NCBI RefSeq assembly: GCF_946415235.1
Contig: NZ_CAMKRR010000009.1
Coordinates: 1,276-65,275 of the forward strand
DNA length: 64,000 bases
From: an uncultured Ruminococcus sp.
GTDB lineage: Bacteria > Bacillota > Clostridia > Oscillospirales > Ruminococcaceae
Direction of reading: 5' to 3'
Part shown: piece after piece, positions 26,387 to 33,012 of the stretch
Numbering within the stretch: the stretch's first letter is position 1
Layout of the letters: every line of letters starts with the position of its first letter
Translations under genes and position numbers: made by a program
The notes under the pieces: model-generated
Database searches by the model: none
The model's input: the letters and a program-made list of their open reading frames with translations, nothing else
Told to the model about the DNA's origin: nothing

Positions 26387-26472
26387 TTGAAAAATACACG
26401 GATATGGTATATAATAAAATAAGTTTCCCAAAAAAATGTGTTACACTTTTGAGCGTCACAGCAAGTATATAT
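26387..26472 (+). promoter_or_regulatory. Tandem promoters for the rightward ECF operon: SigA-type plus candidate ECF-type
   Basis: TTGAAA-17-TATAAT (26387-26415); downstream TGTTACACTTTT...GTATATA (about 26439-26471) is a possible ECF promoter. Confidence 0.5.
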
Positions 26473-26526
26473 TATGAAAGCACTTACAGCGCGCCAGGCT
26501 TTTTAATAAAACAAAGGGGTGGTCCT

Positions 26527-27102
26527 ATGACTGACAAAGAATATCGCAGAATATACGCCAATGATCCGCAAAAAGCCCAGACTGAACTGTTTGATGAATA
26601 CCTGAATTATGTTTATGCCATAGTTTACAACAAACTTCGCAGCTGCGGCAGCCGTGAAGATGTTGAGGAATGTGTGGGTGATGTTTTTTCAGCTGTTTTT
26701 ATAAGCTATGACCATAACGGAAGCTTCAGCGGCGATCTGAAAGGCCTTATAGGAACTATTGCAAACCGCACGGCTGTACAGAGGTACCGAAAGCTCGTCC
26801 GTAACTGCAATACAGTATATATAGAAAACGAGACATCGGAAATTGCAGATACGGAATGTATCGAGGAGAATGCAGAACGCAGTGTTTTGAAGAATACGCT
26901 CTTAAAGCTTATAAAAAGCCTCGGAGAGCCCGATTCGGACATTATAATACAGAAGTACTATTATAATATGAATTCTAAGGAAATAGCGGATAAACATTCA
27001 ATGTCCCCCGAATCAGTGAGAATGAGATGCAGCAGAGCCCTGAAAAAGCTTAAGGCTCTTCTTGCTGATGAAGGCTACGATATGAAGGAGGGAAATATAT
27101 GA
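26527..27102 (+). CDS. ECF sigma-70 factor
   Basis: Start MTDKEY at 26527 after aggggtg. DVEECVGDVF, DLKGLIGTIA.R.A...YRK; L...D..IIIQKYYYNMNSKEIA....SPESVRMRCSRA.KKLK. Confidence 0.92.
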   Translation: MTDKEYRRIYANDPQKAQTELFDEYLNYVYAIVYNKLRSCGSREDVEECVGDVFSAVFISYDHNGSFSGDLKGLIGTIANRTAVQRYRKLVRNCNTVYIENETSEIADTECIEENAERSVLKNTLLKLIKSLGEPDSDIIIQKYYYNMNSKEIADKHSMSPESVRMRCSRALKKLKALLADEGYDMKEGNI

Positions 27103-28253
27103 GCGAAAATAGAAAAATAGGCTTTGATGTCCTCGAAAACTCCGATATAAACACCATAGAGCAATTAGGTACAGATAAAATGAATATTGATAAAAGCGCA
27201 CGAGACAGAATGCTCAAAAATACAATGCAGAAATATGAAAACGAGAAGAAAAAGCTCAGTATTTCGCAGACTGCAGCGGATGCAGACAACGAATCGGCTG
27301 ATTCCGTAACAGGGGTTGAGATGTATGATCGCAGAAAAGCACCGCATATCATTTATATCGTTTTATGTTCAGCAGCAGCAGTCGCACTGGCGGTCGGAAG
27401 CATAGCTATGTTCAGTCGTCAGAAAAATATTACTCCCGATATCAAAAACCCTGTAGCTGAAATGACTTCCACTGTATCAACAACTACTGTTACAGGCACT
27501 TCTGCGGCGGCTTCAACGGTCAATTCCGCTGAAACATCAAAGCTCACGGAAACGAAAACAACTGCAAATATTTCAGTACAAAGCACAACAGCAGAAGAAG
27601 CTTCCACAACAGCCGCTGTTACAGAAACTACTGCCGAACAGACGCAGTCAAACACAGCTGTATCAGCACCGTACAAAAATCCTCATACAGACCGCACCGA
27701 TATCTCTCAGGAAGAGCTGGAAGCTGCGGCTGTCAGAGCAGTCAGGGGGCTTATACGTGATAATACGGAGTTCCAAAACCTTAATCCACAGATGGAGTTT
27801 ACATTCAGCTATGCATTCTATGACGTAAACGCTGATTCAGTACCCGAACTGTTTATCACAAAAAGGTATGTTCTCCAGGAACAATATATGTACGTATACG
27901 ACGGAAACGAATATGTTTCGGCGCGCTTCAACGGTCATAACATTGACGGCAGTGAGAAAGTACATGATGTAACAATTGATAATATTGATGTATTAACTGC
28001 CCCAAATACTATAGCTATGCTCGGACACCAGGCAGGGGCTCAATCATTTATTATATACATGGATTCTGATAATACCATTACTCCGTTACACGAATACACA
28101 TATTACAGATATTATGAAAACGGCAGATTGACGGAAGAGAACTTATCCGATACAGAACTTTTGATGTTCAAGCGCTTTTGCGATGAATATAAAGCCTATG
28201 AACGCGTGAAGTTGAACTGGACGGTTTATAACGACACAAATTCTGCAGAGTAA
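27099..28253 (+). CDS. Cognate anti-sigma-factor-like single-pass membrane protein with Ser/Thr stalk and uncharacterised extracellular domain
   Basis: 4-bp overlap with the sigma stop; cytoplasmic ~80 aa, VTGVEMYDRRK then TM (IIYIVLCSAAAVALAVGSIAMF), T/S-rich linker, YAFYDVNADSVPELFI domain. Confidence 0.75.
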   Translation: MSENRKIGFDVLENSDINTIEQLGTDKMNIDKSARDRMLKNTMQKYENEKKKLSISQTAADADNESADSVTGVEMYDRRKAPHIIYIVLCSAAAVALAVGSIAMFSRQKNITPDIKNPVAEMTSTVSTTTVTGTSAAASTVNSAETSKLTETKTTANISVQSTTAEEASTTAAVTETTAEQTQSNTAVSAPYKNPHTDRTDISQEELEAAAVRAVRGLIRDNTEFQNLNPQMEFTFSYAFYDVNADSVPELFITKRYVLQEQYMYVYDGNEYVSARFNGHNIDGSEKVHDVTIDNIDVLTAPNTIAMLGHQAGAQSFIIYMDSDNTITPLHEYTYYRYYENGRLTEENLSDTELLMFKRFCDEYKAYERVKLNWTVYNDTNSAE

Positions 28254-28637
28254 CCGCGGTCAAACAGCTTTTCGGAATAATTGCTCTAATAAGTCATAAA
28301 ATATGTATGCGTCCTTAAAAATTTGTACGGACATAAGAAAGCTTTATAAAATTTGAAAAATGTTTATTACAAGTATAATTCGCTCTTAAAATATCCATAT
28401 AGTATAAGTGTGATAATATTAAACATACTGCAAACTACGAGTTATCCGTAATTTGTCCACAAAACTCTGTCAAACATATCATAACAAATAGGATAAATAT
28501 ACAATTTGTTTAGTAGATTTTGTAGCAGTATCACGAATATGATTAACAAAATGTGACTTTTCTCAAAAAGGTATTTACAAATTACGATATAGAGAGTATT
28601 ATAAATACATAATTTATTTCTTTTAGGGGGCATTTTT

Positions 28638-28973
28638 ATGAGATTATTTTCAATGTTAGGCGAGATCTATGACGACGTTGTTACAGGAAGAAACACCTAT
28701 ATGTACGACGATGACTATGACTGCCTTTACCTGCCGGTCAGCAAGGAGTTCGTTACTCACGGACTTGAGAAACAGTGTGATGATTGTGGAGTTCTTATCT
28801 TTACAATGGATCACGACTTCAATTATACTCTTGACAGTATTCTGATTGATCAGGACGAGCAGCCGCGCGATCTGAGAGAGGAAATTGCTGAATATACCGA
28901 GCATTATGAGCTCATTGAGCAGTATTATGAGCTCAGCAGTGCGCTCTCTCATGTGTTTTGCAGAATTAATTGA
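28638..28973 (+). CDS. Hypothetical acidic protein (111 aa)
   Basis: RBS aggggc, coding-like composition, followed by a terminator; no motif recognised. Confidence 0.7.
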   Translation: MRLFSMLGEIYDDVVTGRNTYMYDDDYDCLYLPVSKEFVTHGLEKQCDDCGVLIFTMDHDFNYTLDSILIDQDEQPRDLREEIAEYTEHYELIEQYYELSSALSHVFCRIN

Positions 28974-29170: not shown

Positions 29171-29199
29171 TTGCAATTAAGGAAATATTATGCTATCAT
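29171..29199 (+). promoter_or_regulatory. SigA promoter of the GH9-like gene
   Basis: TTGCAA-17-TATCAT with TG; followed by a short 5' hairpin ttacagc...gctgtaa. Confidence 0.65.
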
Positions 29200-29262
29200 A
29201 TAATTACAGCTTGTATCTGATTTGGCTGTAACATTTTTACGTGAAACAAGGGAGGGTATTTC

Positions 29263-32200
29263 ATGCAAAAAAATTTCTCAAAAAGGATCATTGCAGGATT
29301 ACTGGCATCTGCAATGGTGATGCCTGGAACTGTCGGTACGTTGAAGCCCCTGCAAGCTTCCGCTTATGAAGTGTTGGGAGAGACTACATTCGACCATAAG
29401 ATCCTTCCGTGGCATACTGCAGAGGCAAGTCCTGCAAAGCAGTATTTCGAGCTTTCTGAGGGAACTGTCCGCATTCTTATACAGGTGCCCGAAGGAGCTG
29501 ATAAGGAAAAGTGGGATCTCCAGTTCAGGCACAGAAATCTTAACTTCCAAAAAGGACATGAGTACAAAGTAAGCTTTAAGGCAAAGAGCAGCAGAAATGG
29601 CTTTGAGCTTTGCTCAAAGATCGGAAACATCAAGGGCGATGAAGAGTATTTTCAGCTTGACGGTGAAACCAATGCTATGCATATGGGACCTCATATGGGA
29701 GGTCAATGGTATATGTCAGCTGTAAAGCTCTCTACAGAGTGGCAGACATTTGAGGGTATATTCAAGCCTACAAGTGATCTTGAAGCTGTTGAGTGGTGCT
29801 TCCAGTATGCAAAGGGTACACAGTATCAGGGCAATGCTCAGGCAGGAGATGAACTGTGGTTCGATGATATGTCCATTGAAGATCTGACAGACGACATATC
29901 CACTCAGAATACATTTAAATTCGGCTATACAACCCGAAAATACAGCGGTCTGGGATATAATTACATCTCTGTCAATCAGCTCGGATACTATCAGGGACTT
30001 GAAAAAATCGCAACACTCGGAGATAATAAAGGCGATATCGTCCACGATATGCCTACCATAGAGCTTGAAAGTAATGAGCACTATGTCTATGAGATCGTAA
30101 GCACAGCTGACGATAAGGTAGTTTACACAGGCGAAACATCATTTGCCGTAAAGGATTACGACTCGGGCGACACCGTGTGCAAGATCGACTTTACTGAGTT
30201 CAACGAAACAGGCGAATACTACATTCGCATTAAAGGCAAAGAATGGAGATCGTTCCCGTTCAGGATAGGAAATGATATCTACAGCGATAAAGAAAATGAT
30301 CTGCTGACCAATGCACTCAATTATTTCTATCAGAACCGCGGCGGCATTAAGATCGAGTCCAAATATATCACATCAGGCGATAAATCCAAACTTGCACATA
30401 ATTACGACCGTGATGAATCCGTTGGATTTGTACAGACAAGCTGGCAGTCATGCAATTTCGATAGTGTAAAAATGGCAGAGCAGAACAGCTCTTCAAGAAT
30501 TGATACGAGCGGCGGCTGGTTCTCGGGAGCTAATTTCGACAAGAGCATGAAAGAGAGCGGCATCGCACTCTGGACACTGCAAAATCTGTATGAGCGTGCA
30601 GCGCTTATCGAAAAAAGCGCAAATAAATTCGCAGACGGCTCGGGTACAGTCGTTATTCCCGAAACGGGCAACAAAATACCCGATATTTTGGACGAATGCA
30701 GATATGAGCTTGACTATATGTCTAAGATGAAGGTACAGCCTGATGAAGAAACATGGGGCAAATATGCAGGTTTGTATTATAACGGCATAAAGGGCGTTGA
30801 ATTTGAACCTCTCCCCAAGGATTATGAGCATGAGTACCATGCATGCTATATCGTTCAGCCCCCGACATTTGCTGCAACTCTGAACTACGCTGCCTGTGCG
30901 GCACAGGGCGCACGACTCTGGGAGCCCTATGACAAGGAATACGCAGCAGAGCTTCTTAAAAGCGCCAAGGAAGCATATCGGGCTTACAAAGAACAGTTTT
31001 ATTTGGCAAGCCCTAATGAAGAAAGCAATAAAGTTTCACTGTACGAGCCATCGTCAATAAAAAGAACAGGCCCGTCAGGTGACACGTATATAGAGGACGA
31101 CGCTTACTGGGCAGCCTGCGAGCTCTACATCACCGCAAAGGAAGTGGACGACTCAGACGCTGAGAGCTACTTAAAGGACCTTTCCGACTATTCAGACGCA
31201 TTCAAGGTAAAGCCAAGAAACGGTATTAATACCGGTGTAGCGGGAGAGCCCTCATTTACACTGTTCAACAGTGATGGAACAGCATCCGCAGGTTCACTTT
31301 CCATGCTGCTCAACAAACCTCTGATCCCCGATGAACAGTACAAAACACTGAACGGCTCCTTGCTCGACACAGCAGATGAATACATCAATGAAGAAGATTA
31401 TCAGGGCTACGGCATACCCTATAAGTATGACGGTCCCGGATTTGCGGCATACAGCGGAGACCTTTATGACATAGTTTATCATGGTTTTGAGACCGATTCC
31501 AATCAGCGCGCTGTAAATAATATGCTGGCTATGGCTTATGCCTACGACCTTACAGGAGAAAGCAAATACCTTAACGGTGTGGCAAAGGGCATGGATTATA
31601 TCTTCGGAAACAATCCTCTGGCGTTCTCCTATGTAACAGGCTGCGGATCGTATCATGTAAAAAATCCGTCTCACAGATACTGGCTGAATGAGTTGGATCC
31701 TTATCTGCCGCAGGCGCCTGACGGCGTACTTGTAAGCGGTCCTAACGCAATGCCTATGGATCAGTATATGCGTGCCCTCGGATTTAACGACAACAGAACT
31801 TCCGCTGATCCGTCTGAGAGGTACTATGCTGATTCTGTTGAGGCATGGTCTACGAATTCGACCTCTCTCGGCTGCAATGCTTCACTTGCATGGCTGGTTT
31901 CATTCATGCAGGACGAGGCTTCGGACACAGTTGACGAGCCTGCCGCAACAGGCGATGTGAATGCTGACGGTGAATTCAATGTCGCTGATGTCGTACTTCT
32001 CCAAAAATGGCTGCTTGCTGCTCCGAATGCAAAGCTCACAAAATGGAAGGCAGCTGATTTCTTCAAAGATAATAAGCTTGATGTATTCGACCTGACACTT
32101 ATGAAAAAAGCACTTGTAAGCCAAAATACACAGGACTACATCGAGCCTGACGAGCGCTTTGAATACGGTACGCCGTGTACTGTTGACTGGGACGGTCTGA

Positions 32201-32937
32201 AACTGTATAAAGGCCCTGATGAAAGCTATGAAGTCATCACTACAATCCCTAATAATGCACACCTAAATGAAATAGGCTATCAGGAGGGCAACAATGACTG
32301 GCTGTTTACTGAATACAAAGGTCAGTATGGCTGGATACAAACAAGAATAAACGGTCATAGTACTATATATTATGCTGCGGTCGCCAAGAAGCCTGTTATT
32401 TACCTTTATCCTGAAGAGGAGACTGATGTTCATGTGGAGCTGGAGCTGACAGAAGCCGATCTCTCAACAACCTATCCGAAGTACAATAACGGCTGGGACG
32501 TAACAGCGTTACCTGACGGTTCGCTTCTCAACAAGGCTGACGGAACACATCACAAGTATCTTTTCTGGGACGCAGTAAACTGCCGCACAAGATTTGACTT
32601 CTCAGAGGGATTCTGTGTTGCGGGAAGCGATACAGAGAACTTCCTCAAGGAAAAACTCGCGTATATGGGCTTAACAGAGGAAGAAATGAACGAATTCATC
32701 GTGTACTGGCTGCCTTTAATGGAGCATAACAAGTATAACCTCATTTCTTTCCAGGGTGATGCTTATACGAATTCTGCGAAGCTGAACATCACTCCGACAC
32801 CTGACAGTGTGCTTCGTGTATTCATGGCTTATGTTCCTCTCGAAGAGGCAGTCGAGACCGAACCTCAGCAGCTTGAAGGCTTTGAAAGAAAAGGCTTCAC
32901 AGTTGTTGAATGGGGCGGCAGCGAGATCAGATCATAA
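29263..32937 (+). CDS. Catalytically degenerate GH9-fold cellulosomal protein: signal peptide, CBM4, Ig-like, GH9*, dockerin (group 3/6-type), SH3b-like, C-terminal KPVIYLYP domain
   Basis: CBM4 LGETTFD..LPWHT..S, WDLQFRHR; Ig YISVNQLGY; GH9 scaffold LNYFYQNR, YWAACELY, MDY.FG.NP...SYVTG. Catalytic motifs replaced (see findings). Dockerin at 31951; GL.LY.GP..SY.VI..IP...WL.TEY.GQYGWI. Confidence 0.88.
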   Translation: MQKNFSKRIIAGLLASAMVMPGTVGTLKPLQASAYEVLGETTFDHKILPWHTAEASPAKQYFELSEGTVRILIQVPEGADKEKWDLQFRHRNLNFQKGHEYKVSFKAKSSRNGFELCSKIGNIKGDEEYFQLDGETNAMHMGPHMGGQWYMSAVKLSTEWQTFEGIFKPTSDLEAVEWCFQYAKGTQYQGNAQAGDELWFDDMSIEDLTDDISTQNTFKFGYTTRKYSGLGYNYISVNQLGYYQGLEKIATLGDNKGDIVHDMPTIELESNEHYVYEIVSTADDKVVYTGETSFAVKDYDSGDTVCKIDFTEFNETGEYYIRIKGKEWRSFPFRIGNDIYSDKENDLLTNALNYFYQNRGGIKIESKYITSGDKSKLAHNYDRDESVGFVQTSWQSCNFDSVKMAEQNSSSRIDTSGGWFSGANFDKSMKESGIALWTLQNLYERAALIEKSANKFADGSGTVVIPETGNKIPDILDECRYELDYMSKMKVQPDEETWGKYAGLYYNGIKGVEFEPLPKDYEHEYHACYIVQPPTFAATLNYAACAAQGARLWEPYDKEYAAELLKSAKEAYRAYKEQFYLASPNEESNKVSLYEPSSIKRTGPSGDTYIEDDAYWAACELYITAKEVDDSDAESYLKDLSDYSDAFKVKPRNGINTGVAGEPSFTLFNSDGTASAGSLSMLLNKPLIPDEQYKTLNGSLLDTADEYINEEDYQGYGIPYKYDGPGFAAYSGDLYDIVYHGFETDSNQRAVNNMLAMAYAYDLTGESKYLNGVAKGMDYIFGNNPLAFSYVTGCGSYHVKNPSHRYWLNELDPYLPQAPDGVLVSGPNAMPMDQYMRALGFNDNRTSADPSERYYADSVEAWSTNSTSLGCNASLAWLVSFMQDEASDTVDEPAATGDVNADGEFNVADVVLLQKWLLAAPNAKLTKWKAADFFKDNKLDVFDLTLMKKALVSQNTQDYIEPDERFEYGTPCTVDWDGLKLYKGPDESYEVITTIPNNAHLNEIGYQEGNNDWLFTEYKGQYGWIQTRINGHSTIYYAAVAKKPVIYLYPEEETDVHVELELTEADLSTTYPKYNNGWDVTALPDGSLLNKADGTHHKYLFWDAVNCRTRFDFSEGFCVAGSDTENFLKEKLAYMGLTEEEMNEFIVYWLPLMEHNKYNLISFQGDAYTNSAKLNITPTPDSVLRVFMAYVPLEEAVETEPQQLEGFERKGFTVVEWGGSEIRS

Positions 32938-32975: not shown

Positions 32976-33012
32976 AAAAGGCTGTATGACCGATCGGGTC
33001 ATACAGCCTTTT
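32976..33012. terminator. Bidirectional intrinsic terminator
   Basis: 16-bp stem aaaaggctgtatgacc/ggtcatacagcctttt. Confidence 0.88.

Follow-up and report, generated by a model that had tools for sequence, protein, structure and literature searches.

The window analysed here is a stretch of 64,000 nucleotides (nt) from an uncultured Ruminococcus sp. (assembly GCF_946415235.1, contig NZ_CAMKRR010000009.1, positions 1,276-65,275 of the forward strand). The gene considered occupies window positions 29263..32937 on the plus strand, stop codon included, where a single unbroken open reading frame (ORF) encodes a protein of 1224 amino acids (aa) that resembles a cellulosomal cellulase of glycoside hydrolase family 9 (GH9) but whose GH9 module is catalytically degenerate; it is called the pseudo-GH9 protein below, and the coordinates of its parts refer to the same strand. 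Read from the translation, the protein begins with a signal peptide (aa 1-34; 29263..29364) that has a Lys/Arg-rich start, a hydrophobic core and an Ala-Ser-Ala sequence followed by Tyr, and it is probably secreted. Pfam profiles then place a CBM4 module (aa 40-178; 29380..29796; CBM_4_9, 37.3 bits), an Ig-like CelD_N domain (aa 233-326; 29959..30240; 69 bits), the degenerate GH9-fold module (aa 346-878; 30298..31896; PF00759, Glyco_hydro_9) and, immediately C-terminal to it, a short type-I-like dockerin (aa 897-951; 31951..32115; Dockerin_1, 31.9 bits against a cut-off of 22.9). An earlier sequence-only reading of this DNA had proposed the order CBM4-Ig-GH9-dockerin in a frame free of frameshifts and stops; both statements hold, and what that reading overlooked is a tail in which the dockerin is followed by a bacterial SH3 domain (SH3b; aa 977-1026; 32191..32340; SH3_3, 28.3 bits against a cut-off of 27), modelled by AlphaFold2 (AF2) with a predicted local distance difference test score (pLDDT) of 84-95, and by a conserved C-terminal domain of 185 aa that matches no family (aa ~1040-1224; 32380..32934), here called the X domain.

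As a member of a sequence family the module is unambiguous: PF00759 aligns over model positions 3-443 of 444 with 193.1 bits against a cut-off of 27.7, although this score is the lowest among the 11 GH9 genes of the genome and the DAGD box, the acid Glu and the NPHHR box of the family are all lacking. The order of the modules is that of CelK-type CBM4-Ig-GH9-dockerin proteins, but the whole-protein score for NF049990, the equivalog model of CelK-type cellulose 1,4-beta-cellobiosidase, is 373.7 bits, far below its cut-off of 1700. A Dockerin_1 match above cut-off and a canonical first Ca loop (DVNADGEFNVAD) mark the product as a cellulosomal protein.

In GH9 enzymes, the C-terminal Asp of the DAGD box acts as the catalytic base and the N-terminal Asp as an essential helper, and the catalytic carboxylates are strictly conserved in characterised GH9 cellulases (PMC6032398). 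Alignment of the pseudo-GH9 protein to the CbhA structures 1UT9 and 1RQ5, its best matches in the PDB (E about 1e-72), and to its family shows that the former DAGD box (aa 417-428; 30511..30546) has changed from GGWYDAGDHGKY in CbhA to GGWFSGANFDKS, so that DAGD reads SGAN (Asp to Ser421 and Asp to Asn424), the adjoining His is Phe425, and both fixed positions of the DAGD pattern of PROSITE PS60032 fail. The same alignments place TDSN where WGSN is expected (aa 744-747; 31492..31503; Trp to Thr744) and NPSHR in place of NPHHR (aa 801-805; 31663..31677; His to Ser803); this last box is NPHDR in CbhA and NPHHR in the canonical ruminococcal paralogs, and the pseudo-GH9 protein keeps its second His and the Arg. 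At the catalytic acid, where the motif WSTNEITVNWNA of CbhA has become WSTNSTSLGCNA, the column holds Glu in 1UT9, Gln in 1RQ5 and Ser866 (31858..31860) in the pseudo-GH9 protein; we take 1RQ5 to be the inactive E795Q variant of CbhA that was made to trap substrate. The residue losses named by the sequence-only reading (GGWFSGAN, TDSN, NPSHR and Ser at the acid position) are thus borne out by the CbhA alignment, and its nucleotide coordinates were exact.

To place these changes among relatives, a search with residues 230-890 was used, which returned 912 relatives, and the best 120 clusters were read in register. All 120 come from Ruminococcus or Oscillospiraceae, and they divide into 42 canonical and 78 degenerate clusters, so that about two thirds are degenerate. 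All 42 canonical clusters keep the three carboxylates, and the eight diagnostic positions (D, D, H, W, H, H, R and E) are invariant in every one of them; because of this invariance, the changes at these positions in the pseudo-GH9 protein cannot be ascribed to chance. They also extend well beyond the eight, since 84 of the 226 GH9 positions that are invariant in the canonical relatives are changed. Among positions conserved at 95% or more in the canonical group, the pseudo-GH9 protein keeps 57/62 (92%) in CBM4, including 14 of 16 conserved aromatic or His residues, and all 35/35 (100%) in the Ig-like domain, and 187/282 (66%) in GH9. The GH9 losses cluster in the DAGDHGKYVVN, KLT.LAT, GGGPY, WGSN, NPHHR, SGGPN and TNEVTINW segments and include W670S, W744T, W871C, Y605S, Y428S, H507N and H425F. 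Judged from these alignments, much of the conservation around the former catalytic centre is gone, beyond the carboxylates.

Within the same genome, DAGD is kept in 9 of the 11 GH9 genes, and the other two lack the catalytic machinery. The second of these is also a CBM4-Ig-GH9 protein (G000:C139:821-3454, locus L010; 1099 aa), in which DPEN stands for DAGD, IGSN for WGSN, FPVDE for NPHHR and VNS for TNE; it lies on a much longer branch and has a group-1-type dockerin and a different C-terminal extension.

The 78 degenerate clusters vary in what they have lost. The first Asp of the box is kept in 9, the second in 47 and the acid Glu in 34 (44%); all three are present in 4 and none in 22. In a FastTree phylogeny of the Ig-GH9 region, a degenerate clade of 74 rows stands beside the canonical one with support 99, and under a mixture model in IQ-TREE the Shimodaira-Hasegawa-like approximate likelihood ratio test (SH-aLRT) gives 76.8 for all 36 sampled degenerate rows and 98 for an inner group of 27. 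The clade is deep (50-60% identity) and its branches are several-fold longer. Parsimony requires 11 changes at the first Asp, 17 at the second and 17 at the Glu but only 3 and 2 at H803 and W744, a pattern that agrees with a remodelling that inactivated the module early, after which the remaining carboxylates were lost repeatedly and independently. At 79-97% identity, the eight closest orthologs still differ at these sites, with Asn or Asp at the base position and Ser, Glu or Gly at the acid position. Among 29 species-representative Ruminococcus genomes, the best locus is degenerate in 14 and canonical in 15. Intact orthologs or paralogs of ~1220 aa occur in at least 14 species, and several genomes carry three or four copies of the clade, with four in G086. 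One clade member, WP_028517708.1, belongs to a cultured R. flavefaciens strain. Ten residues, each found in 81-94% of members, form a signature specific to the clade, near the altered loops: G388, M429, E431, R480, Y560, L564, A756, V824, Y855 and L869.

By these comparisons, the pseudo-GH9 protein is no one-off; it is a member of a large, old and hitherto unremarked ruminococcal clade. Full-text literature searches for a described pseudo-GH9, for an inactive cellulosomal GH9 protein or for accessions of clade members returned nothing relevant. In three papers on the genome and the cellulosome of R. flavefaciens, every CBM4-GH9 protein is taken for a cellulase and no loss of residues is noted (PMC2721979, PMC2930009, PMC4081043). 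In public databases, members of the clade are entered as 'glycoside hydrolase family 9 protein' or 'Endoglucanase', in agreement with the earlier claim that automated pipelines would miscount such a protein as a cellulase.

Selection on the gene was estimated as the ratio of non-synonymous to synonymous divergence (dN/dS, or ω) by the Nei-Gojobori method on codon alignments, with synonymous divergence (dS) of 0.08-0.57 across the ortholog comparisons, a range that is unsaturated. For the GH9 module, ω was 0.17 against a 97%-identical copy from an independent assembly (dS 0.08), 0.18 against an 86% ortholog (dS 0.50) and 0.19-0.21 against three 80% orthologs (G086, G052 and G031; dS about 0.55); in a control comparison of the canonical paralog between this genome and G052, it was 0.21 (dS 0.43). 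Over the whole length of the gene, ω was 0.17-0.22 in four comparisons, and it was 0.05-0.16 for CBM4 and 0.07-0.10 for the X domain. The degenerate module is therefore constrained as much as its live canonical paralog, which excludes simple decay. A dN/dS near 1 with disrupted orthologs had been named in advance as the sign of such decay; the values obtained are far below 1 and the orthologs are intact. The view of the sequence-only reading that this is a pseudo-enzyme under selection is accordingly upheld, as the gene combines two marks of a pseudoenzyme, loss of essential residues and purifying selection with intact orthologs across many species.

The same codon data show where within the module the constraint lies. 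GH9 positions that are invariant in the canonical group and retained here have ω of 0.03-0.08. At the 84 changed positions, ω is 0.24-0.25 in pairs that do not include the pseudo-GH9 gene, equal to the non-conserved remainder of the module (0.24-0.25). At the old active site, constraint fell from absolute to the background of the domain, and positive selection is not indicated. Positive selection on the old cleft had been considered from values of 0.38-0.44; these appear only in pairs that contain the pseudo-GH9 gene and reflect ascertainment bias, as the independent pairs give 0.24-0.25, and the idea was rejected. In the SH3 segment (32191-32340), comparison with the 80% orthologs L014, L016 and L015 gives a dS of 0.10-0.28 against about 0.6 elsewhere in the gene, with ω of 0.5-1.0 over a short stretch of about 60 codons; the low dS may reflect gene conversion among paralogous copies of the dockerin-SH3-X (Doc-SH3-X) cassette.

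The C-terminal part of the protein also sets it apart from its canonical paralog. Both Ca loops of the pseudo-GH9 dockerin contain Phe, and its segments c1 and d contain Trp, as described for group 6a dockerins of R. flavefaciens (PMC2930009). In the canonical paralog of this genome (L008; G000:C32), a Thr-rich linker leads to a dockerin with VLIMQSLANPNKY...ALRIQEFLL, a motif that corresponds to the R. flavefaciens group-1 signature (PMC2930009). On these motifs, the two dockerins differ in type. The partners of group-1 dockerins in strain FD-1 are ScaA and ScaB1-4, and the sole partner of groups 3 and 6 is the ScaC adaptor (PMC5301203); by analogy, the pseudo-GH9 protein would be expected to dock to a cohesin other than that of the active paralog, one of ScaC type.

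The SH3-X tail follows the degenerate state, being present at 10 of the 14 degenerate and 0 of the 15 canonical CBM4-GH9 loci of the species representatives. The Doc-SH3-X cassette as a whole (aa 894-1224) is found on at least four other proteins of the genome with 69-77% identity and recurs on many proteins across the genus. Carriers in this genome include a protein of 1089 aa with a marginal GH11 match (L059; G000:C24:487-3753; 30.5 bits against a cut-off of 27) and two paralogous proteins of about 850 aa (L057, G000:C62; L058, G000:C58) whose N-terminal 500 residues have no Pfam match. A fifth copy of the cassette (L055/L056; G000:C44:13342-14144) is broken by two TGA codons and a change of frame, and is probably a pseudogene or an assembly error.

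The X domain has a wide distribution of its own. Searched alone, it recovers 6,635 cluster representatives; its place is invariably the C-terminus, frequently behind an SH3_3 domain. There are also free-standing versions, secreted or membrane proteins of about 220 aa that carry a hydrophobic segment at the N-terminus and share about 60% identity across Oscillospiraceae. Neither Pfam nor NCBIfam nor the sequences of the PDB contain a match to the domain. An AF2 model built from 73 diverse rows reaches a pLDDT of 95 and a predicted template modelling score (pTM) of 0.89; with 14 near-identical rows the pLDDT stayed below 50. Foldseek found no fold neighbour in the PDB (best E 0.27, template modelling score (TM) below 0.2) and, in BFVD, a single uncharacterised protein of a giant virus (Terrestrivirus) with a TM of 0.76. 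The neighbourhoods of two stand-alone homologues consist of housekeeping genes. A role as a Cys/His enzyme was considered and dropped, as these residues are not conserved in the wider family, and its SH3b neighbour allows the speculation that the domain is associated with the cell wall. Among the uncharacterised extracellular domains of gut Firmicutes, X represents one of the larger families.

Around the gene, direct reading shows a strong ribosome-binding site (AAGGGAGGG; 29248..29256, plus strand) 6 nt ahead of the ATG, and a consensus scan finds a sigma-70-like promoter site, TTGCAA-17 nt-TATCAT with an upstream TG (29171..29199, plus strand). The sequence-only reading had called both good; the ribosome-binding site stands, and the promoter is plausible only, because such sites turn up at least as often when the sequence of the region is shuffled. 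Downstream, a palindromic stem of 16 bp with A/T runs on both sides (32976..33012, annotated on the minus strand) lies between the pseudo-GH9 gene and a convergent GGDEF-EAL gene, and is probably a bidirectional terminator.

Upstream on the same strand (26404-28973) are genes for an ECF-like (extracytoplasmic function) sigma factor with region 2 and region 4 matches, for a protein of 384 aa and for an acidic ORF of 111 aa. The 384-aa ORF overlaps the sigma gene and encodes a Thr/Ser-rich, anti-sigma-like membrane protein without a family match; it is 89% identical in the 97%-identical contig, where its neighbours are 98-99% identical. The possibility that this pair (26404-28253) and the 111-aa ORF form a conserved unit with the GH9 gene was rejected: only the 97%-identical contig preserves the arrangement, neither the 1.5-kb flanks of 80% and 64% relatives nor the contig of the 86% ortholog contains these neighbours, and two terminator-like hairpins lie between them and the pseudo-GH9 gene.

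The reading we favour is that the pseudo-GH9 protein is a non-catalytic subunit derived from an enzyme. It would have arisen, in a rumen Ruminococcus of the R. flavefaciens group, by duplication of a CelK/CbhA-type CBM4-Ig-GH9 cellobiohydrolase, the canonical paralog of which remains in the genome. Its GH9 module has lost the two aspartates of DAGD as well as the acid Glu, and with them the first NPHHR His and a number of cleft aromatics. The module would persist as a folded (alpha/alpha)6 body, and the purifying selection on it is of the ordinary kind. Since the whole catalytic apparatus of GH9 is gone, we infer that the protein does not hydrolyse beta-1,4-glucan by the GH9 inverting mechanism, and this predicted absence of activity comes from the sequence comparisons described above. 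As CBM4 and the Ig-like domain are intact, the protein is most likely a glycan-binding or targeting subunit. It would be plugged into a different cohesin than the active paralog, on the FD-1 analogy that of the ScaC adaptor, and it has an SH3b and X tail that is common to other non-canonical cellulosomal proteins. The GH9 body of 545 aa may be kept as a structural partner of the Ig/CBM4 unit or as a remodelled binding surface. To the whole statement, that of a secreted, dockerin-bearing, non-catalytic cellulosome subunit with CBM4-led binding that uses another cohesin, we assign a probability of about 65%; that the gene encodes a conserved, non-hydrolytic pseudo-GH9 protein is, taken alone, highly probable.

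Several points weigh against this reading or soften parts of it. The base Asp together with the acid Glu survives in about one third of the clade, and some relatives may therefore be weakly active. Six of the signature residues (M429, E431, R480, V824, Y855 and L869, each conserved at 82% or more) lie near the old active site and represent some new constraint there. It could mark a newly formed binding site; a new arrangement for catalysis is less probable. The groups were defined by motif and the motif columns were kept in the trees, which makes the phylogenetic argument mildly circular. The dockerin group was assigned from a verbal description of group 6a and from another strain, and the binding role proposed for CBM4 is deduced purely from the conservation of its residues.

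Another possibility is that the GH9 module itself is lectin-like or loosens the wall, with a remodelled cleft that binds or pries apart a plant glycan other than a single cellulose chain, and with the diversity of the clade reflecting diversified ligand recognition; chi-lectins (GH18) and expansins (GH45-like) would be analogous. At ten positions the clade has a conserved residue that differs from the canonical one, and five of these positions (M429, E431, V824, Y855 and L869) adjoin the old catalytic loops; GGW, H804, WSTN and N872 are retained, the 545-aa fold is maintained at ω about 0.2, and the clade is multi-copy within genomes, up to the four copies of G086, as a recognition family would be. 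However, three conserved cleft Trp and several Tyr or His residues have become small or polar in the pseudo-GH9 protein, the former active-site positions evolve at the background ω of 0.24-0.25 without a non-synonymous excess, and 52% of them already vary among the eight close orthologs. We regard this explanation as possible and rather doubtful. The sequence-only reading had listed cellulose binding among its options; because conserved cleft aromatics and His are lost and the old site evolves at the background rate, binding through the GH9 cleft is not favoured, and the intact CBM4 is the likelier binder.

The acidic residues that follow the old base position invite another explanation, in which the protein is still an enzyme that uses shifted residues, such as E431 or D426 as the base, or that has another chemistry or substrate. 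E431 is present in 82% of the clade and D426 in 44% of the clade and in 8/8 close orthologs, purifying selection on the module equals that on the active paralog, and GH97 is said to be a case of mechanistic divergence within a single glycoside hydrolase family. Yet the acid has no conserved carboxylate in its place, not even in close orthologs: position 866 is Ser, Glu or Gly in the eight orthologs of at least 79% identity and Glu in only 44% of the clade, which makes residual or novel catalysis unlikely. In addition, the base position alternates between Asn and Asp among those eight orthologs, the sugar-stacking aromatics are lost, and characterised GH9 cellulases show strict conservation of the catalytic carboxylates (PMC6032398). 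The 'new chemistry' suggested by the sequence-only reading found no support, and retained activity of any kind is considered improbable. Least credible, to the point of being negligible, is that a recently inactivated cellulase gene is on its way to loss. Occasional relatives do have an in-frame stop (G009:C29 and G009:C34), and the Doc-SH3-X copy on C44 of the same genome is broken by its two TGA codons. Against this stand the full-length ω of 0.17-0.22 in four comparisons, the intact 1220-aa orthologs and paralogs in at least 14 species in a clade as deep as 50-60% identity, and the 97%-identical copy that was recovered with the same neighbours in an independent assembly.

The reading of the pseudo-GH9 protein as a non-catalytic subunit has consequences beyond this gene. 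The number of GH9 genes is routinely taken as a measure of how cellulolytic a rumen genome or metagenome is, and the degenerate clade changes how such counts are to be read. The existence of a conserved, expanded set of dead cellulases whose dockerin has been exchanged points to the recruitment into cellulosomes of non-catalytic subunits derived from enzymes, and the clade provides a concrete set of proteins with which to ask what such subunits contribute, be it targeting, adhesion, loosening or regulation. More tentatively, and in our judgement with the odds against it, the degenerate CBM4-Ig-GH9 proteins could form, in the R. flavefaciens group, a non-catalytic lectin/adaptor class with the GH9 fold, in which clefts have diversified to recognise different structures of the plant wall, routing is to a ScaC-type cohesin other than that of active cellulases, and many members are tied to the cell surface by SH3b and the X domain with its new fold. 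If so, some of the 'GH9 cellulases' that rumen ruminococci encode would serve substrate recognition or adhesion, not hydrolysis.

Among known systems, the same order of CBM4, Ig and GH9 and the same fold family, with a dockerin after the catalytic module, are found in CbhA and CelK of Clostridium (Acetivibrio) thermocellum (1UT9, 1RQ5, NF049990), and the module order is shared with the CBM4-Ig-GH9 cellobiohydrolases Ra3055, Ra1589 and Ra1743 of R. albus 8 (PMC5066209). Unlike these cellobiohydrolases, the pseudo-GH9 protein has its catalytic residues and several cleft aromatics replaced, another type of dockerin and an added SH3b and X tail. The canonical ruminococcal CBM4-Ig-GH9 clade, represented by L008, is its sister at 50-56% identity; the conserved positions of CBM4 and Ig are nearly identical in the two, whereas the canonical clade holds the eight positions invariant (42/42), has a Thr-rich linker that leads to a dockerin of group-1 type, and lacks the SH3-X tail throughout. 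Functionally, the nearest known precedent is C. cellulolyticum Cel9V (Ravachol et al. 2014), a cellulosomal CBM4-Ig-GH9-dockerin protein that was reportedly inactive on all substrates tested, either free or complexed. It is said to be 78% identical to the active Cel9E and to be a single gene, without a large clade and without an SH3-X tail. Pseudo-glycosidases are familiar from other families, such as the expansins (GH45-like) and the chi-lectins (GH18-like), and beetles reportedly have GH45 copies without catalytic residues. In these cases, as here, a glycoside hydrolase fold stays under selection after loss of its carboxylates and is associated with a carbohydrate-binding function; they differ in fold and family and in that the old cleft is the binding site, whereas the pseudo-GH9 protein has lost its cleft aromatics and has a separate CBM4.

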